The translations under genes were made by a program, and so were the position numbers. Positions 278 through 18,826 of a DNA stretch of 22,887 nt are shown here, piece after piece. Source of the stretch: a virus (lineage: Duplodnaviria; Heunggongvirae; Uroviricota; Caudoviricetes); the IMG/VR virus record IMGVR_UViG_2541047738_000004. One strand, written 5' to 3'. A model generated the notes under the pieces. The model saw only the letters and a list, made by a program, of their open reading frames with translations. It did not search any database and was not told the origin of the DNA. The first letter of the stretch is position 1. Each line of letters starts with the position of its first letter.

Positions 278-1420
278 CTATGCTGTTTTGATATCTACGA
301 TAACCCAGTCTTTACCACGATCATCATTGTATCGGTCGGTCATTTTTCTGGATTTATGGCCTAACAACTTTTGCGTATCCAGACCCTGTTCCCGATATAA
401 CCGTTCTGACAGAGATCGCTGCTCATGAAATGTGGGCGCAGTTCCTTGCTCCCATTTTATGCCACATTTTTCCCTGGCCTTTTTAAAAGCCGTTGTCAGA
501 GTATTTGCAGAAACCTGGTCTCCTCTGTTTGCTTGAGAGGTAGTGTGACGGTAATGGACCAGATATTTACTAACAACAGCATCCCTGCACTGAGATATAA
601 CTTCACGAAGGGTAATATTCAGAGCATCGCATTTCAGGTTAAGCGGAATAGCAAGTTTTGAACCGGTTTTTTCCTGAGTAATGTGCAACATGTCGTCCCA
701 GATATCAGAGAATTTCAAATTGCAGATATCACCTAAACGTTGTCCAGTAACAAGAGCAAGTAGCATGCCGCATTTTAAATAGGGCTGCCGTCTGCTTACG
801 CTTTCAAATATTGCCTGCCATTCGGGCAGTGACAATCTTTGGCGGTTTACTCGATTTCGCGGTTGTTTTGTTGCCTGCGCTGGGTTAAATCCTGGCGGAA
901 CATGTCCTGCGTGTTGTGCTTCTTTGAAGACGTCGATCAACACCATTCTCACGACTTGCGCCATCCTGTTATGACCTTCAGCCTTTACAGCATCAATTAT
1001 TTCGGCAATATCAAGTGCGGTAATATCCTTGAGGTGTTGCATTCCACAATGCTCACGGAAAAGACGAATGGGTTTGCCTTTTTGCCGATAGGAGTTGGGT
1101 CTTAGTTCATTATGTTGCAGCCTGTCCTCCTGGATAGAAATATATTTATCAAGCCATTCTGTCACCGTAATTTCTGAGCGCCTGCCTTTCATTCTTTCCA
1201 GACGCTCATTGACGCTTAATATTTGTCGGGTACGTTGTTCAGCAATAATGGTATTTGCTTCAGTAGCAACTTGTTTTGCTTCATTCTCATCAGTTCCTAA
1301 GCTATGAAAACGACCGGATAGTGGATGTTTGTATTGCCAATATACCTTTCCGGTTCGCTTATCTAATTTGCAATATAAATTGGGTATAGAGATTTTGTGA
1401 GATCGGGGTCTAGCAGCCAT
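278..1420 (-). CDS. int: Tyrosine recombinase, phage integrase
   Basis: 380-aa ORF with a lambda-Int-family C-terminal catalytic region (…HEQRSLSERLY…LLGHKS…) at the prophage edge, overlapped by xis. Confidence 0.93.
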   Translation of the reverse strand: MAARPRSHKISIPNLYCKLDKRTGKVYWQYKHPLSGRFHSLGTDENEAKQVATEANTIIAEQRTRQILSVNERLERMKGRRSEITVTEWLDKYISIQEDRLQHNELRPNSYRQKGKPIRLFREHCGMQHLKDITALDIAEIIDAVKAEGHNRMAQVVRMVLIDVFKEAQHAGHVPPGFNPAQATKQPRNRVNRQRLSLPEWQAIFESVSRRQPYLKCGMLLALVTGQRLGDICNLKFSDIWDDMLHITQEKTGSKLAIPLNLKCDALNITLREVISQCRDAVVSKYLVHYRHTTSQANRGDQVSANTLTTAFKKAREKCGIKWEQGTAPTFHEQRSLSERLYREQGLDTQKLLGHKSRKMTDRYNDDRGKDWVIVDIKTA

Positions 1421-5007: not shown

Positions 5008-5140
5008 TTTTTGGGACTCCTGGCTGATTAAGTATGTCGATAAGGCGTTTCCATCCGTCACGTAATTTACGGGTGATTCGTTCAAGTAAAGATTCGGAAG
5101 GGCAGCCAGCAACAGGCCACCCTGCAATGGCATATTGCAT
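4976..5140 (-). CDS. cIII: cIII, FtsH inhibitor (54 aa; below the ORF-track size cutoff)
   Basis: Hand translation of the minus strand gives [54 protein letters not shown], matching lambda cIII; overlaps the kil start as in lambda. Confidence 0.85.
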   Translation of the reverse strand: MQYAIAGWPVAGCPSESLLERITRKLRDGWKRLIDILNQPGVPKNGSNTYGYPD

Positions 5141-5212
5141 GGTGTGCTCCTTATTTATACATAACGAAAAACGCCTCGAGTGAAGCGTTATTGGTATGCG
5201 GTAACGCCGCGC

Positions 5213-7190: not shown

Positions 7191-8090
7191 TTATTTGATT
7201 ATTTCTTTTATAAAGACTTCTTTCGGTTGGTATTTTTTATCTGATGATTTGAGCTGGTACGTTATTGTTATATCAGCACGTACAGAAAATTTACCTGCAA
7301 AATCTGATGGGTTTACGTTGGGGCCAAGAACCATATTTACTCTTCGATCTATTAATCCAGGGATAACAGCAGCCCAACCTTTCTCTGGATTGTCGAGGTC
7401 TAATGCACGGATTTCAACATCAACATCAAAATGATCCTGAGTATATGACTCTGGTGTGAAGACAACTTCAGTTGGGGCTTTTTTAATGGTTTCAGCGGGA
7501 ATGGTCACTGTACCACCCCCTGTACCTATGACCATCGTAGATCCTTCGTCTGCCCTAGCTGGGGCAAGCGTCTTAATGGAACTTTTGGCAAGAGTCTTCT
7601 TATTGGTTACCGTGCTTTCTATGATTGCTTGAAGACGGTCAGGTGAAATATTAGCCTCACCGGCACCAATATTGATGATTGTATTGTTATTTGCTTCAAA
7701 GTGGGAGGTGTTGCTTGGAGCCATAGCCTTAGTTGCTAGAACTAAGCCATATCCAACCAGACCAATAACAACAGCACCAACGAGAGCGTTTCTCATTTTC
7801 CCATTTCCGATCTTTGCATGAGCGCCAGCAAGAAACTTGTCCATTTCTTCTTGGCTACCAAAGAGGAGTTTAATAACAATATCTTCATAAAGGCTTCCTG
7901 CTTCTAATCGCGCAACATGCACCGATATATCAAGGATATTAGCCCCTGTCAGTTCCTGCAAAACACCTTCTGATTGTTTTGCGATGGCCTCCCACCCTTG
8001 AAGGGAGGTAATCACATCTTTGATGCTTACAGGTTCTTTAGTTGAATAATATATGTTTTCGGTAAAGGTTAAAGATAATTCTTGGGACAT
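7191..8090 (-). CDS. Unrecognised 299-aa single-pass membrane protein in the rexAB-equivalent slot; candidate superinfection-exclusion or abortive-infection protein
   Basis: Long ORF with ATG and GAGGG RBS and a central hydrophobic helix (ALVGAVVIGLVGYGLVLATKAM). AT-rich compared with flanking genes, directly downstream of cI on the same strand, followed by its own terminator. No family recognised. Confidence 0.75.
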   Translation of the reverse strand: MSQELSLTFTENIYYSTKEPVSIKDVITSLQGWEAIAKQSEGVLQELTGANILDISVHVARLEAGSLYEDIVIKLLFGSQEEMDKFLAGAHAKIGNGKMRNALVGAVVIGLVGYGLVLATKAMAPSNTSHFEANNNTIINIGAGEANISPDRLQAIIESTVTNKKTLAKSSIKTLAPARADEGSTMVIGTGGGTVTIPAETIKKAPTEVVFTPESYTQDHFDVDVEIRALDLDNPEKGWAAVIPGLIDRRVNMVLGPNVNPSDFAGKFSVRADITITYQLKSSDKKYQPKEVFIKEIIK

Positions 8091-8219: not shown

Positions 8220-8927
8220 TCATGAACTTTTCAGCCATTCCCTGGCCTCGATGTCATCTAGGTGGCGAGATTGCTTCAGAATACCAGCTACATACTCCAC
8301 CTTTGCTACTTGATGATAAGGCAACGTTATTGGCCTGTGGTCTTGGTTGATGCTTGTAAATTGGTATTCTCCGTCTCTGTCATAGCCAAGAACCTTGATC
8401 ATGTTGTGCCCTTCAATGGTTCTGACAAACACCTCATCACCTGGGAATACTTTGGTGTTAGGCTCAATGAGTACATATTCTCCTGATTTTATTCTGGGCC
8501 ACATGCTGTCTCCTTTTACACGAAGACCAAAGGCATCTGGATCATCGCTATAAATCTTGAGCCACCCATCGCGCTCTTCGGTCATCTCGATGGCACCATC
8601 AACACCAAGAATTGCCTCACCAACCACGCGCACTAACCCTTTTTTTAATTTGCCAACAATTGAAAAAGTATCTTCATCATTCGCTCCATTTAACGAAGTG
8701 CCGTGCTGAAGCCAAACAACATCAACGTTTAGAAATTTCGCAAGCGCATTCATTTTTTCCTGGCGTGGTAAAGACTCAGCATTAAACCATTTGCTAACGC
8801 CTTTGGACGAAAGAGAAAGGGCACGGGCTATGGCCATTCCCCTACCATGTTCATCAAGACCAGCTTCTTTACAGGCTTGCGCTAGCCGCTGGGCGAATTC
8901 TTTGCGCACTTTTTCATTCTGAACCAT
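8220..8927 (-). CDS. cI: CI-type prophage repressor (HTH N-domain plus S24 LexA-like autocleavage domain)
   Basis: 235 aa with an N-terminal HTH region and C-terminal GDSMWP…K signature of S24 peptidases. Divergent from cro, with no leader or SD before the ATG (leaderless, as for lambda pRM). Confidence 0.9.
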   Translation of the reverse strand: MVQNEKVRKEFAQRLAQACKEAGLDEHGRGMAIARALSLSSKGVSKWFNAESLPRQEKMNALAKFLNVDVVWLQHGTSLNGANDEDTFSIVGKLKKGLVRVVGEAILGVDGAIEMTEERDGWLKIYSDDPDAFGLRVKGDSMWPRIKSGEYVLIEPNTKVFPGDEVFVRTIEGHNMIKVLGYDRDGEYQFTSINQDHRPITLPYHQVAKVEYVAGILKQSRHLDDIEAREWLKSS

Positions 8928-13111: not shown

Positions 13112-13298
13112 CCCATCTCAATCCCTTCAATACCTGAAAGGAAGCATAGAGCGGGCTTCAATGTGCACAGAGTGGATTCTATCTAGGTTTAGCGCATACA
13201 GAAGATTGCCGGTAAAGGGCATGCCAAGCAAGTCGATGCTGCATATGCAAAAGAATGCGCGCGGGAAGGTATGGCGAGAACGCAGGTTATCTGGCTGA
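13104..13298 (+). CDS. NinF-like protein (N-terminal ~18 aa match lambda NinF, then divergent)
   Basis: [18 protein letters not shown]… resembles the lambda NinF N-terminus; the remainder lacks the recalled Cys-rich NinF C-terminus. RBS caggagg. Confidence 0.5.
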
Positions 13299-13317
13299 AA
13301 GAGGGGGTAATTAAGGC

Positions 13318-13680
13318 GTGAATACTTACCACATCACACTACCCTGGCCTCCGAGCAATAATCGCTATTATCGCCATAATCGCGGGCGCACGCACGTCAG
13401 CGCAGAGGGGCAGGCATACCGCGATAACGTCGCCCGAATCATTAAAAACGCAATGCTGGATATCGGCCTGGCGATGCCTGTGAAAATCCGCATTGAGTGC
13501 CACATGCCGGATCGCCGTCGCCGTGACCTGGATAATCTGCAAAAAGCCGCTTTTGACGCACTCACCAAAGCAGGTTTCTGGCTGGATGATGCTCAGGTCG
13601 TTGATTACCGCGTTGTGAAGATGCCTGTTACCAAAGGTGGGAGGCTGGAATTGACCATCACCGAAATGGGGAATGAATGA
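13318..13680 (+). CDS. rusA: RusA Holliday-junction resolvase (GTG start)
   Basis: 120 aa matching RusA of DLP12/phage 82 ([35 protein letters not shown]…). Confidence 0.9.
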
Positions 13681-13817
13681 TGTTTGAGTTTTATATGGCA
13701 GAACGTCTTCGCCACCGCTGGGTGCGTCTGCGCTTATATCGTTTCCCCGGTTCTGTTTTGACCGATTACCGAATACTGAAGAATTACGCCAAAACACTGA
13801 CAGGAGCAGGAGTATGA
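13680..13817 (+). CDS. YlcG-like small protein (45 aa; below the ORF-track cutoff)
   Basis: Hand translation gives [45 protein letters not shown], overlapping the rusA stop; same position as DLP12 ylcG. Confidence 0.45.
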   Translation: MFEFYMAERLRHRWVRLRLYRFPGSVLTDYRILKNYAKTLTGAGV

Positions 13818-13902
13818 AGTCAGAGATAACAATCAACTAATACTGTTTTGCTGATTTTTGCTTGTAATTGGCGTTCTGGTCTGATTTTTGTGGAGTAAGT
13901 TG

Positions 13903-14280
13903 ATGCGTGATATTCAGATGGTTCTTGAGCGTTGGGGAGCGTGGGCGGCTAATAATCATGAAGATGTGACCTGGTCGTCCATTGCCGCCGGTTTTAAGGG
14001 ATTAATTCCTTCAAAAGTAAAATCTCGCCCGCAATGTTGTGACGATGACGCGATGATCATTTGCGGGTGCATGGCCCGTCTGAAAAATAACAACAGCGAT
14101 TTGCATGATTTGTTAGTGGACTATTATGTCGGCGGCATGACTTTTATGGCGCTTGCGCGTAAGCATGGTAGATCTGATTGTTGGATTGGCAGGATGCTCC
14201 AAAAAGCTGAGGGCGTAGTGGAGGGCATGCTGATGGTGTTGGATCTCAGATTGGAGATGGATGCTGATTGTTTGAGATAA
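13903..14280 (+). CDS. Q-like late antiterminator (DLP12 QuuD / phage 82 Q family)
   Basis: 125 aa from ATG 13903 ([26 protein letters not shown]…) resembling DLP12 QuuD as recalled; followed by pR'/tR'-like elements. Confidence 0.72.
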
Positions 14281-14309
14281 TTAAAGGAAAAGTTGCTGTC
14301 TGGTTATCA

Positions 14310-14336
14310 TTAGACTAATGTTTCAAATGTTAGAAT
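14310..14336 (+). promoter_or_regulatory. Candidate late promoter pR' (-35 TTAGAC, -10 TAGAAT) with qut region
   Basis: Sigma-70-like hexamers just downstream of Q and about 45 nt upstream of a strong terminator; the spacer is short (~15 bp), so placement is tentative. Confidence 0.3.
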
Positions 14337-14378
14337 CGCAACGTAGTTATGATCATATAACAGCTTGTTCCCTGATTT

Positions 14379-14409
14379 AGCCAGCCTCCCCAAAGGCTGG
14401 TTTTTTTTC
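14379..14409 (+). terminator. tR'-like rho-independent terminator
   Basis: Hairpin CCAGCC-tccccaaa-GGCTGG followed by a run of 8 T. Confidence 0.65.
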
Positions 14410-14436
14410 TAATAAGTATCAATCCGGTTAGGTATT

Positions 14437-14961
14437 TTATTGTTTGACCCATAATAGTTCATTGACATTGAATCCCAATTTTTGAGCAGTACGCACATAG
14501 TCTGCTTTTACATTATCTGGAATAGTTGGAGTCCGTGCCAGAATCCATAGGTATTCTCTGTTCGGACCACTGACAAGAGCATATTTATACTCATCATCCA
14601 GTTTGATTACATTATAGCCACCATAGAAGGGGCCAAAAAACGAAACCTTCAACGCTGCAGTTGTATTATCTCCTGTAAAGTATGCTTTACCTTCGCTCTC
14701 GCTCCATTTGTTTTTCGTTGGGTCATATCCACGATTAAGTACACTAATCCCTCCGTCGTTCCGTTTCCCATAAGTGGCGCTGACCTGTTCCAGACCACGT
14801 TCAAATCGGTTCTCAAGCCGAGCTATTTCATACCATTTTCCGAGGTAGCGGTTGGTGTCAAAATTTGTAATCGGCTGCACACCTTTAGGTGGTGTCGGGG
14901 CCTTACATGCTATCAGAGTGAAAGAGAGTGCAATGCCAGTCAACACAGGCCATAACTTCAT
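14437..14961 (-). CDS. blc: Blc-like outer-membrane lipoprotein (bacterial lipocalin)
   Basis: 174 aa with a lipoprotein signal peptide and lipobox (…FTLIACKAPTPP…) and strong similarity to E. coli Blc as recalled (…RYLGKWYEIARLENRFERGLE…KVSFFGPFYGGYNVI…YLWILARTPT…). Confidence 0.85.
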   Translation of the reverse strand: MKLWPVLTGIALSFTLIACKAPTPPKGVQPITNFDTNRYLGKWYEIARLENRFERGLEQVSATYGKRNDGGISVLNRGYDPTKNKWSESEGKAYFTGDNTTAALKVSFFGPFYGGYNVIKLDDEYKYALVSGPNREYLWILARTPTIPDNVKADYVRTAQKLGFNVNELLWVKQ

Positions 14962-15153
14962 AATATATCCTGTACTTTTGATAGTTGAGAGTAAGTATTA
15001 AAGATAGATGATTACTACCGATCACTTAAAGAACTTTCCTACTATATTAGGAATAGTCCATAACAAAAAAATTGTCAGTGATGACGGCAGAAAGGCAGTT
15101 TAGGTCGTGTACTACACTGTTAACCTGTTAATGAATTAGTCAAGGGGTAGGCA

Positions 15154-16113
15154 ATGATAAAAAAACCTGTCGTTGGGATCAGTGGTTGTTTGGCCGGTTC
15201 TTCTGTCCGTTTTGATGGTGGTCACAAAAGAGCTAGCTTTTTAATGGACAAATTACTGGAATGGGTAACATTCAAACCAGTATGTCCGGAAATGGCTATA
15301 GGGCTTCCAGTTCCGCGTCCTGCTCTACGTCTTGTTCGCTCGGCGCAAGGAAATATACGGATGTGTTTCAGCCACGACCAGAATGAGGATGTTACAGAGA
15401 AAATGACAGAGTTTAGTCGTTCTTATCTTGACAAATTAAAGGATGTATCGGGATTTGTGGTTTGTGCAAAATCTCCTAGCTGTGGTATGGAACGCGTGCG
15501 TGTATATGATGAAAATGGTAATCGTGGTCGTAAAGATGGAGTGGGACTATTTACGAGCACGTTGATGGAAAGGTTTTCCTGGCTACCGGTTGAAGAGGAT
15601 GGGCGACTACATGATCCAGTGCTTCGTGAAAACTTTGTTGAAAGAGTATTTGCTTTACATGAGCTCAATCATCTTTATAAAGCGAAATTATCAAGAAGGG
15701 AATTATTAGCTTTTCATAGCCGTTATAAGCTTCAGTTGTTGGCGCATAGCCAGGCCGGTTATAAAGAGATGGGGCCATTTGTGGCTGCAATACATGAGTG
15801 GGCAGACCTTGAATCATACTTTGAGGTGTATCGTGAGAAGCTGATGGCGATTCTCAGAAAACCTGCATCACGTAAAAATCACACGAATGTGCTGATGCAT
15901 ATACAGGGATATTTTAGTAACTGCTTAAATACACGTCAGCGTAAAGAGTTGAGCGATGTTATACTTAACTATCGAGCTGGCACGCTACCTCTTCTTGCGC
16001 CATTAACTTTGCTGAAGCATTACTTGGCAGAGTATCCTGATGATTATTTGCTTATACAGAATTACTTCCACCCCTATCCTGATGAACTGGCTCTAAGACT
16101 CTTGGTGAACTAG
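15154..16113 (+). CDS. DUF523/DUF1722 fusion protein (TudS thiouracil-desulfurase-like N-domain, YbgA-like C-domain)
   Basis: 319 aa; the N-terminus VGISGCLAG…VRFDGGHK resembles the Cys-containing DUF523/TudS signature, and the C-terminal half resembles the YbgA/DUF1722 helical domain. Family assignment is from memory. Confidence 0.75.
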   Translation: MIKKPVVGISGCLAGSSVRFDGGHKRASFLMDKLLEWVTFKPVCPEMAIGLPVPRPALRLVRSAQGNIRMCFSHDQNEDVTEKMTEFSRSYLDKLKDVSGFVVCAKSPSCGMERVRVYDENGNRGRKDGVGLFTSTLMERFSWLPVEEDGRLHDPVLRENFVERVFALHELNHLYKAKLSRRELLAFHSRYKLQLLAHSQAGYKEMGPFVAAIHEWADLESYFEVYREKLMAILRKPASRKNHTNVLMHIQGYFSNCLNTRQRKELSDVILNYRAGTLPLLAPLTLLKHYLAEYPDDYLLIQNYFHPYPDELALRLLVN

Positions 16114-16422
16114 GCGTTTGGAATGCACCAACAAGATGATTTTCTCCTTAGAGAATGTTTACAATCGTAAAAACTTCACTATGATATCTATAGTTGTACA
16201 GTTTGTAAAAAAATTCGGTTCATGCTTAAGGTAATGTTAATATGTTAATTAATGATTAATAATCAAGCAAGCCAAAAATAGTTCTGTTTAATCTAGTATT
16301 ACATAAATATTTTAAAGAAAATATCAAAGTTCATGATGATATAATGAGGTTTTTCTCATTGAAAATATGGCAATTTTAATATTTCCACCTATACTTACTT
16401 AACTCAAATCTAATTATGTCAG

Positions 16423-17163
16423 GTGGATGGTATGCCATGCATATGTTCTATCATTTTGGTTTTGAACTCGTTTGATATCCGGCTTGGTAAAGAAAAAATC
16501 TCTCTAAAAAAAGGAAGTGTTGTTGCTATAGAATACAATTTAAAAGTTTTCTTTTCTTCAAATAAAGATAATATAATGATCGTGGATATTGAAGAGAAAA
16601 CAGTTAATGACTTCTTTAAAAACAATACACTCTCACCTTTTTCTGTAAGAAGATTTTATTCAGCATACTTGATAGTAAACTGTACAGACTATTCATTGTT
16701 AAAGAACTTGATAGGTTGCTTGAATTGTGATGGTGAAACTACGGCTGTAGTTAAAAATTCAATATTATTTGCATGTCTTGCTATTTTATCCTCGGAAAAA
16801 ATGTTTCAGAGTTTTTTGTTTGGGTGTCTTAATAGTTTAGGAAGCAAAGTTAAGGCTATTATTCACTCGGACATATCTGCAGCATGGAGACTTTGTGATA
16901 TTTCTTCAAGACTATGTCTGAGTGAAAGTTTGTTAAAAAGAAAACTAAAACACGAAGGCTTATCATTTAGCAAATTAATTCTTGAAGAACGAATGGTGAT
17001 GGCTGAAAGGTTATTAAGCTACAATTTCTATCCTGTTGGGAAAGTTGCTAAAATATGTGGTTATGAAAGCGCGTCATATTTTATAAGTGTTTTCAGAAGA
17101 TATTTTGGTGTTCCCCCCCATGAATATTCATCAAGATTTTTTTTAGAAAAAGGCAAGATGTAA
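16423..17163 (+). CDS. AraC-family transcriptional regulator (Rns/AggR/GadX/AppY-like); start uncertain (GTG 16423 or ATG 16432)
   Basis: C-terminal AraC HTH (…VGKVAKICGYESASYFISVFRRYFGVPPHEY…); markedly AT-rich coding sequence preceded by ~300 bp of AT-rich non-coding DNA. Confidence 0.75.
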   Translation: MDGMPCICSIILVLNSFDIRLGKEKISLKKGSVVAIEYNLKVFFSSNKDNIMIVDIEEKTVNDFFKNNTLSPFSVRRFYSAYLIVNCTDYSLLKNLIGCLNCDGETTAVVKNSILFACLAILSSEKMFQSFLFGCLNSLGSKVKAIIHSDISAAWRLCDISSRLCLSESLLKRKLKHEGLSFSKLILEERMVMAERLLSYNFYPVGKVAKICGYESASYFISVFRRYFGVPPHEYSSRFFLEKGKM

Positions 17164-17225
17164 CGTGATGCGTTTTGATGATTTTGTAATTTTCATATTT
17201 GATGATTATATGATGCTTTCAGCTA

Positions 17226-17252
17226 CGCCAGAATAATCGCTGGCGTTTTTCT
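17226..17252 (+). terminator. Putative rho-independent terminator after the AraC-family gene
   Basis: Hairpin CGCCAG-aataatcg-CTGGCG followed by TTTTTCTTTT. Confidence 0.45.
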
Positions 17253-17330
17253 TTTCTAATGTAACTTCTGTATCTTTCCCTCTTTCATTCCAAACCGTGT
17301 ACACCATCCGTTATTCGCGGAGGTGAGGCT

Positions 17331-17546
17331 ATGAAATCCATGGACAAGTTAACAACGGGCATTGCCTACGGCACCTCTGCAGGCAGTGCTGGCTACTGGT
17401 TTTTACAGTGGCTTGATCAGGTCAGTCCGTCACAGTGGGCGGCGATTGGAGTGCTTGGAAGCCTTGTGTTGGGTTTTCTCACTTATCTGACAAACCTTTA
17501 TTTCAAGATTAAAGAAGATAAGCGTAAGGCTGCGAGAGGTGAATAA
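17331..17546 (+). CDS. S: Phage-21-type class II holin / pinholin (dual start Met1/Met4)
   Basis: 71 aa ([71 protein letters not shown]) near-identical to S21 as recalled; RBS ggaggtgagg. Confidence 0.92.
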
Positions 17547-18532: not shown

Positions 18533-18826
18533 TTATTGTGAGCAATAGACACGCGCTTCCAGCGGAGTATAAATGCCTAAAGTAATAAAACCGAGCAATC
18601 CATTTACGAATGTTTGCTGGGTTTCTGTTTTAACAACATTTTCTGCGCCGCCACAAATTTTGGCTGCATCAACAGTTTTCTCCTGTCCAATTCCCGAAAC
18701 GAAGAAGTGATGGGTGATGGTTTCCTTTGGTGTTACTGCTGTCGGTTTGTTTCCAACAGTAAACGTCTGTTGAGCACATCCTGTAATAAGCATTGCCAGA
18801 GCGGCAGAAAACAACATTTTTTTCAT
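18533..18826 (-). CDS. bor: Bor lipoprotein (serum-resistance protein)
   Basis: 97 aa from internal ATG (MKKMLFSAALAMLITGCAQQTFTVGNKPTAV…) matching lambda Bor; the ORF-track N-terminal extension is rejected. Confidence 0.9.
   Translation of the reverse strand: MKKMLFSAALAMLITGCAQQTFTVGNKPTAVTPKETITHHFFVSGIGQEKTVDAAKICGGAENVVKTETQQTFVNGLLGFITLGIYTPLEARVYCSQ

Follow-up and report, generated by a model that had tools for sequence, protein, structure and literature searches.

Which genes fill the interval between the late antiterminator gene Q and the lysis genes of a lambda-like prophage, where did they come from, and do they serve the lysogen or the lytic cycle of the phage? These questions are raised by the IMG/VR record IMGVR_UViG_2541047738_000004, a stretch of 22,887 nucleotides from a virus of the Caudoviricetes, whose full length is referred to below as the window. 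A preliminary description made from the letters of the sequence had placed three genes at 14437-17163, between Q with its terminator tR' and the holin gene, and had named them as a Blc-like lipocalin, a DUF523/DUF1722 protein and an AraC-family regulator. Open reading frames, Pfam matches and neighboring genes confirmed the three genes and their position, and all three identities proved correct in the Pfam search.

We consider it likely that these genes form a composite moron cassette in the Q-to-holin recombination hotspot, bracketed by terminators and assembled from two parts of different origin. The first part would be a divergent pair of chromosomal origin, a lipocalin gene on the minus strand and the tRNA desulfidase gene rudS on the plus strand, which has lost the MerR regulator often found with its chromosomal counterparts. 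The second part would be an AT-rich AraC/XylS-type regulator of the PatE/PsrA/PsrB/AppY group that acts on the GAD acid-resistance network of the host. The cassette is already known and is among the commoner occupants of its slot.

A known cassette in the Q-to-holin slot

The limits of the cassette were defined by comparison with the DLP12 prophage of Escherichia coli K-12. DLP12 is about 92% identical at the nucleotide level to positions 13601-14262 of the window, spanning upstream genes and most of quuD. Homology then stops at 14262, 18 nt before the stop codon of Q, and restarts at 17320, 11 nt before the ATG of the holin gene. These blastn break points delimit an exchangeable segment at 14263-17319 and bear out the proposed cargo island in the nmpC slot of a lambdoid prophage, as the corresponding interval in K-12 DLP12 is occupied by nmpC and IS5. 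To the left of the cassette is a QuuD-type Q antiterminator gene (13903-14280, plus strand; Pfam Phage_antitermQ, 2.5e-51), annotated by PGAP as “antiterminator Q family protein” in an identical genome. To the right is a class II (P21-type) holin gene (17331-17546, plus strand; Phage_holin_2_1, 3e-35), which lies in the resumed homology to DLP12 essD. The nmpC interval of DLP12 is shared with the cassette, and both open with a minus-strand cargo gene. In gene content, the cassette is unrelated to nmpC or to the stx cargo that 933W-type phages carry in the Q-to-S slot.

The cassette is also set apart by composition, as had been proposed. Its GC content is 37.3%, compared to 46.3% for the window, and is unevenly distributed: the lipocalin gene and rudS are both at 43%, the spacer between rudS and the regulator gene is at 27.0%, and the regulator gene at 31.3%. 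The position between Q/tR' and the holin, the unrelated DNA in a sibling phage, the deviant GC content and the presence of nmpC instead in DLP12 are together what is expected of a moron. A tRNA search of the region found no tRNA genes of the kind present in the slot of Shiga toxin (Stx) phages.

The cassette has been sequenced before in phages. Positions 14300-17330 (3031 bp) are 100.0% identical to Escherichia phage 1H12 (NC_049947, genus Jouyvirus) and to Lambda_ev066, and at least 99% identical to nine more lambda isolates from the infant gut, Lambda_2E9 and Lambda_4B5 among them; phage IdasGreatGrand is about 90% identical. In 1H12, the cargo is encoded by gp65-gp67 in the order Q, lipocalin (minus strand), gp66, gp67, holin, endolysin, Rz, and Bor, and nothing differs within the island. 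The 1H12 annotation reads “Lipocalin Blc” for gp65 and “hypothetical” for gp66 and gp67. The window represents the form integrated at icd, as in strains such as E. coli ST3, and otherwise carries the same island as 1H12.

The same block is widespread in the species. Among 5426 complete E. coli genomes, the block was matched in 1152, a full-length rudS was found in 1064 and a full-length allele of the regulator in 996, and about 18-20% of the genomes carry the cassette. Its rudS gene is located in prophages of the icd, DLP12 and Qin types, and the order Q, lipocalin (minus strand), rudS, regulator, and holin recurs both in AST215, where the prophage resembles DLP12, and in what remains of Qin in strain HS. 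Insertion sequences (IS) are present in some of the copies. The full Q-lipocalin-RudS-AraC-holin architecture was observed in 71 of the 80 IMG/VR loci retrieved with RudS, while in the remaining loci the regulator gene is truncated or frameshifted, or the edge of the contig is reached. The cassette is tied to a single type of Q, with 95-100% identity.

The trio can thus hardly be called unusual cargo, as the preliminary description had it: it is present in 1H12 and ten more phage records as well as in a large share of E. coli genomes and viral loci. Each of the three proteins has its own full-length PHROG family (phrog_2809, phrog_3275, and phrog_1450, the last for the regulator), all listed as “unknown function”. 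Further, blc is a known moron, present in more than 50% of infant-gut lambdas (Mathieu et al., 2020; PMC6969025), and the family of prophage AraC-like regulators to which the third protein belongs has been studied in detail (PMC10877973; PMC10057817). Hence, the trio is largely a common module of known prophages with assigned function, except that databases still describe the lipocalin and the regulator in generic terms. Our literature search for the lipocalin-RudS-AraC trio as a unit found nothing.

Two further occurrences were noted during the survey. In E. coli BL21(DE3) (NZ_CP053602; locus L004, 5137-6000), a Qin-type remnant contains Q, the lipocalin gene, and the start of rudS, which is cut by IS3 after about 49 codons; BL21(DE3) was the host in the published RudS experiment with ultraviolet A (UVA) (PMC11417400). 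The cassette was also found on two short contigs (L061 and L080) of a metagenome-assembled genome labeled “Candidatus Nanosynbacter sp.” (D148_maxbin.008, Saccharibacteria), with Q at 98%, the lipocalin at 97% and RudS at 88-92% identity, together with an AraC allele and the holin. These copies are almost certainly mis-binned E. coli prophage DNA.

RudS, the lipocalin and the origin of the pair

The middle gene, rudS (15154-16113, plus strand, 319 aa), encodes a fusion of a TudS (DUF523) domain and a DUF1722 domain, and is identified as a tRNA 4-thiouridine (s4U) desulfidase by its Pfam domains and its identity to a studied enzyme. The domains are PF04463 (2-thiour_desulf/DUF523) at residues 7-149 (3.6e-40) and PF08349 (DUF1722) at residues 192-309 (1.3e-40). 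The gene corresponds to gp66 of phage 1H12 (H3V29_gp66), which lies at the matching position in the 100% identical block of NC_049947 (41424-44454), and gp66 was studied as RudS_vir by Jamontas et al. (NAR 2024; PMC11417400). According to that work, RudS is a [4Fe-4S] desulfidase built as a TudS-DUF1722 fusion that converts s4U8 in tRNA to uridine, and overexpression in E. coli lowered tRNA s4U for all six RudS enzymes tested, including RudS_vir. The preliminary description was right that this protein acts on a thio-nucleobase, which can now be specified as the s4U of tRNA (PMC11417400).

The residues required for this chemistry are in place. In RudS_KT of Pseudomonas putida, the cluster is ligated by C17, C49, and C114, and the catalytic residues are E51, R60, S111, and S113 (PMC11417400). 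The protein encoded in the window has Fe-S cysteines C12, C44, and C110, positioned as for RudS_vir in Table 1 of the same paper, and its translation shows E46, R55, S107, and S109 as the equivalents of the catalytic residues. RudS_ST (Salmonella STM1389/ORF319) and RudS_KT (P. putida PP_0741) have the same domain fusion, Fe-S cysteines, and catalytic residues as RudS_vir. TudS (6z92) was the sole PDB sequence match. Overexpressed RudS_KT shortened the growth delay caused by UVA from about 105 to about 60 min (PMC11417400).

The lipocalin gene (14437-14961, minus strand, 174 aa) runs against the late operon and encodes a predicted outer membrane lipoprotein with a Lipocalin_2 domain (PF08212, 2.2e-43). 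It scores 315.5 bits on the NCBIfam Blc subfamily model NF007786 (cut-off 267), matches the sequences of the E. coli Blc crystal structures 3mbt/1qwd at 3e-69, and is identical to gp65 of 1H12. Its lipobox, read from the translation, is LIAC with Cys19, and its N-terminus MKLWPVLTGIALSFTLIAC(19)K aligns with the Blc lipobox VVAC(18)S. K-12 Blc (b4149), encoded next to ampC, shares the family and the lipoprotein signal. The two proteins are only 60% identical, however, compared to 74-81% identity between the phage protein and the RudS-adjacent lipocalins of Kluyvera, Enterobacter, Kosakonia, and Buttiauxella. Together with the different genomic context, this rules out orthology to the ampC-adjacent chromosomal blc. 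By its sequence, the phage lipocalin is a Blc-like paralogue and presumably binds lipids or other hydrophobic ligands in envelope maintenance.

Where the pair came from was addressed by surveying chromosomal RudS genes, with one genome per species, in a total of 72 loci. The RudS proteins in the enterobacterial loci are 68-76% identical to the phage protein. In 11 loci (Kluyvera and Huaxiibacter), a lipocalin gene whose product is 73-79% identical to that of the phage is present on the opposite strand upstream of rudS, directly adjacent to it in Kluyvera. Eight loci (Enterobacter, Kosakonia, Buttiauxella, Lelliottia, and Raoultella) contain a lipocalin gene on the minus strand followed on the plus strand by a gene for a MerR/MlrA-type regulator and by rudS; in Enterobacter sp. 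Bisph1 (locus L040, 3421-5957), for example, the regulator has the domains MerR_1, MlrA_helical, and MlrA_C. In 11 more enterobacterial loci, a MerR regulator is present and the lipocalin is missing. The immediate neighbor of rudS in Vibrio, Shewanella, and Photobacterium is a photolyase gene. Chromosomal rudS genes have a MerR/LitR-type regulator and/or a photolyase nearby (our survey; PMC11417400), while the phage gene has neither.

None of the surveyed chromosomal RudS loci contains Q, a holin gene, or a close relative of the AraC-type regulator, and in Kluyvera ascorbata the pair is set among core genes (a yejH-like helicase gene, rplY, and ndpA). As the chromosomal pair is free of phage genes, the divergent arrangement of lipocalin and rudS is an old unit of the bacterial chromosome, captured by a phage without the MerR regulator. 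The recurrent lipocalin-MerR-RudS order suggests a regulated stress unit, in which the lipocalin is functionally linked to the erasure of s4U. Neither such a link between lipocalin and RudS nor a lipocalin-MerR-RudS unit was found mentioned in the literature searched.

The regulator and expression of the cassette

The third gene (16432-17163, plus strand, 243 aa) encodes an AraC/XylS-family regulator of the PatE/PsrA/PsrB/AppY group (HTH_18, PF12833, 2.9e-15; HTH_AraC, PF00165, 1.7e-12). The ATG at 16432, chosen by PGAP, has a better Shine-Dalgarno context and is preferred as its start over the GTG at 16423. The AraC double helix-turn-helix is present at the C-terminus, where it matches the DNA-binding domain of GadX (3mkl) at 5.5e-21; the best PDB sequence matches are this domain, CsvR, Rns, and ToxT. 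YdeO and GadX are the nearest NCBIfam models, with scores below their cut-offs. With ECs_0287 of strain Sakai, the regulator shares 53% identity over 235 aa (E 3e-86), with PsrA (ECs_1087, Sp4) 47%, and with AppY of DLP12 30% over 235 aa; this homology is full-length, including the N-terminal domain. ECs_0287 is equated here with PatE (z0321) of OI-8, given that Sp1, the presumed Sakai counterpart of OI-8, encodes no other AraC-type regulator.

PatE, PsrA/B, and AppY are activators of gadE/hdeA that increase acid resistance, and some members of the group act as repressors of type III secretion or of motility (PMC10877973; PMC10057817). PatE (z0321), PsrA (z1789/ECs_1087), and PsrB (z2104) of enterohemorrhagic E. 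coli O157:H7, as well as AppY of DLP12, resemble the regulator described here in being prophage-borne, AT-rich, and of similar size. The regulator described here belongs to an allele group of its own, which occurs mostly in non-O157 strains and does not exceed 53% identity to any characterized member. By analogy with these proteins, it may feed into the GAD acid-resistance network of the host via gadE and hdeA. In Sakai Sp4, psrA is located just 3' of the Q antiterminator gene and before the ileZ-argN-argO tRNA genes, and is thus a precedent for an AraC-like gene directly downstream of Q. The two differ in their associated genes, which are tRNA genes, effector loci, and pch for psrA (PMC10877973) and lipocalin and rudS for the regulator gene of the window.

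The cassette contains two terminator-like hairpins, each followed by a T-run on the plus strand. The first (14379-14410, between Q and the lipocalin gene; folding free energy -14.2 kcal/mol, z -3.9) is a candidate tR', which would end a short transcript from PR' in the absence of Q, and is kept in the alleles of AST215, HS, and IdasGreatGrand. The second (17225-17254; -12.1 kcal/mol, z -2.8) lies in the gap between the regulator and holin genes and is nearly invariant even though the allele flanks have diverged to about 80%. Both are kept in alleles that are elsewhere 80-90% identical. An Rfam search of the cassette gave zero families at gathering scores, and two sub-threshold matches, both located on the candidate tR' hairpin, were rejected as chance. 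A promoter-like match over the stop codon of Q (14252-14281, plus strand; TGGAGA-18-GATAAT with an upstream TG) was obtained in a consensus scan as a weak candidate for PR', and its sequence is kept across cassette alleles. When the region next to Q was aligned more finely to DLP12 in search of a shared PR'/qut, just short blocks such as ATATAACAG proved to be conserved.

The spacers between the cargo genes were also inspected. The divergent region between lipocalin and rudS (14962-15153) has 34% GC and one promoter-like match with 9 of 12 consensus positions (14985-15012, plus strand). It is conserved between phage alleles and cannot be aligned to its chromosomal counterpart in Kluyvera; alignment of the lipocalin-rudS intergenic regions of the phage with those of Kluyvera and Huaxiibacter, in search of a shared operator, revealed no meaningful conservation. 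The AT-rich spacer 5' of the regulator gene (16114-16431, 27% GC), presumably a promoter and silencing region, has promoter-like matches at 16158-16185 and 16367-16395 (both on the plus strand), which are not above chance.

Under the composite-moron reading, each cargo gene would be expressed in the lysogen from its own promoter, probably silenced by H-NS or induced by stress; for the regulator region in particular, H-NS silencing and stress induction may resemble those of appY. The terminator at 17225-17254 would keep this cargo transcription out of the lysis genes. Upon induction, Q-modified RNA polymerase starting at PR' would pass tR', run antisense over the lipocalin gene, and then proceed in the sense direction through rudS and the regulator gene and across the second terminator into the holin gene. 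By this gene geometry, the plus-strand genes rudS and regulator would be boosted late, similarly to stx in Stx phages. The lysogen may benefit from the lipocalin through envelope maintenance, from RudS through relief of the s4U-dependent growth arrest under UVA or some other tuning of the tRNA pool, and from the regulator through acid resistance provided by the GAD network.

Selection on the cargo genes was estimated as the ratio of nonsynonymous to synonymous substitution rates (dN/dS) by the pairwise Nei-Gojobori method, using the four alleles of the window, AST215, HS, and IdasGreatGrand, for which dS reached 0.2-0.6. Values were 0.07-0.29 for the lipocalin gene, 0.10-0.22 for rudS, and 0.21-0.28 for the regulator gene; those of the neighboring Q and holin genes were 0.00-0.11 and 0.08-0.12, respectively. 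All three cargo genes are under purifying selection, including those in a defective prophage.

Several observations weigh against parts of the composite-moron reading. The phage lipocalin gene and rudS have 43% GC (37-39% at third codon positions), compared to 51-63% for the homologues in Kluyvera, Enterobacter, Citrobacter, and Klebsiella, which implies either an AT-richer donor lineage that has not been sampled or strong AT drift on the phage. Promoter-like matches in the region occur at chance level in the consensus scan (12, compared to 11.2 expected), and no promoters were therefore assigned; the same scan gave no convincing sigma-70 promoter for rudS or the lipocalin gene. For the regulator, 53% sequence identity to the presumed PatE is no guarantee of the same regulon. 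In a few IMG/VR contigs (e.g., L151, L153, and L118), its gene is truncated or frameshifted next to an intact lipocalin gene and rudS, which suggests that it is the most dispensable of the three. As for RudS, the UVA phenotype was demonstrated just for the P. putida enzyme, and under overexpression (PMC11417400). RudS_vir, although well expressed, desulfidated tRNA more weakly than the other RudS proteins and conferred the shortest lag on 4-thiouracil (PMC11417400), so that tRNA s4U may not be its preferred substrate in vivo.

Alternatively, the plus-strand genes, and above all rudS, may be auxiliary genes of the lytic cycle rather than genes of lysogenic conversion, with most of their expression coming from late transcription antiterminated by Q. 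UV, a classical inducer of prophages, also cross-links s4U8 to C13 in tRNA and triggers the stringent response; by stripping s4U from host tRNA, RudS could sustain translation when sunlight or UV induces the prophage. The orientation of both genes with the late operon directly 3' of Q and tR', the tight linkage of the cassette to one Q type, and the lack of a convincing promoter for rudS in the scan all agree with such a role, as do the photolyase genes that adjoin RudS homologues elsewhere (our survey; PMC11417400). Nevertheless, the island has the anatomy of a typical moron, being AT-rich, with terminators on both sides and one gene on the opposite strand, and the lipocalin/rudS pair is a stable chromosomal unit outside phages. 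The cassette persists under purifying selection in defective prophages that have lost lytic growth, for example the Qin remnant of HS, and an enzyme made late would have little time for turnover of the tRNA pool. We therefore regard a primarily lytic role as unlikely, if still worth keeping in mind.

Rather than acting on the host network, the AraC-like protein might be a dedicated local regulator of lipocalin and rudS that has replaced the MerR/MlrA-type regulator, making the cassette a single self-contained stress regulon. The constancy of the trio in viral loci (71 of 80, the others being truncated copies or contig ends), the similar numbers of genomes with the full-length regulator allele and rudS (996 and 1064), and the absence of the chromosomal MerR regulator from the phage version would fit this arrangement. 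However, the presumed PatE in Sp1, PsrA in Sp4, and AppY in DLP12 occur without lipocalin and rudS and have GAD genes of the host as targets, and some relative of the regulator is present in 1889 of the complete E. coli genomes, compared to 1082 with rudS. The lipocalin-rudS pair in Kluyvera has no adjacent regulator, the difference between 31% and 43% GC suggests separate acquisition, and decay of the regulator gene leaves rudS and the lipocalin gene intact. A local regulon thus appears slightly less probable again than a lytic role.

That the island is neutral passenger DNA, or a locus for anti-phage defense or superinfection exclusion, is very improbable: although some copies carry IS insertions and this recombination hotspot houses many defense and exclusion genes of temperate phages, dN/dS is far below 1 in all three genes and comparable to that of Q and holin, intact copies persist in about 1000 genomes, the three families each have a known and unrelated biochemical activity, and PADLOC defense models gave zero matches to the three proteins at E <= 0.01, which argues against defense.

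The surrounding prophage and significance for E. coli

The cassette is part of a lambda-like prophage beside icd. The region is 100% identical to E. coli ST3 (NZ_CP121087), where icd is followed by int, xis, exo/bet/gam, kil, cIII, sieB, a gene for a cI-like repressor, cro, cII, O, and P, and then by ren, ninB, dam, ninE, rusA, ylcG, Q, and the three cargo genes. Downstream of the cargo, the order is holin, RrrD (the lysozyme gene 3' of the holin gene), Rz, iss/bor, terminase, and portal. The window begins within icd, whose 3' end extends to about 164; the integrase gene (278-1420, minus strand) and an excisionase gene come next, and this insertion site in icd is the one used by phage 21/e14-type elements.

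Other features of the window were noted outside the cassette. Right after Rz is a gene for a Bor/Iss serum-survival lipoprotein (18533-18826, minus strand; Lambda_Bor, 6e-31; iss in RefSeq), a second classical moron near the cassette. An open reading frame of 299 aa (7191-8090, minus strand) adjoins the gene for a cI-like S24 repressor (8220-8927) in the slot of rexAB in lambda. It has a full-length match to phrog_4506 (“unknown function”) and a sub-threshold match to Pfam DUF1206, NCBIfam and PADLOC searches of it gave no match, and it could be an uncharacterized exclusion or defense moron. The cIII thermoregulator Lambda_thermo (5095-5153, minus strand; 88.5 bits, E 1e-20) is the sole Rfam family in the window. 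Just 5' of rusA is a DUF1364 (ybcO-like) remnant without its N-terminus (13232-13321, plus strand), which is a pseudogene in the identical RefSeq genome.

As a discovery the cassette matters little, given that an identical phage has been published, the product of one gene has been characterized biochemically, and the families of the remaining two have been studied well. What retains interest is the prevalence of prophage RudS at the species level and the conserved linkage of lipocalin and RudS. E. coli has been said to lack RudS (PMC11417400; a 2026 review, PMC13602947). This is true of K-12, and BL21(DE3) has only the IS3-truncated remnant, while about 20% of complete genomes contradict it. 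With full-length prophage rudS in 1064 of 5426 genomes, the choice of strain matters for experiments on s4U and UVA. Besides, by analogy with its characterized relatives, the regulator would be a further, widespread example of a prophage AraC protein that taps the acid-resistance network of the host.

We also entertain, tentatively and with no more confidence than a lytic role, that lipocalin and RudS form a coupled unit against light or oxidative stress, which lambdoid phages took from an enterobacterial chromosome, stripped of its MerR/LitR-like regulator and rewired under a PatE/Psr-like AraC regulator and/or Q-dependent late transcription. If so, roughly a fifth of E. coli strains would possess an eraser of tRNA s4U under phage control, which would alter the growth delay and stringent response under UVA and might also affect how well UV induces the prophage.

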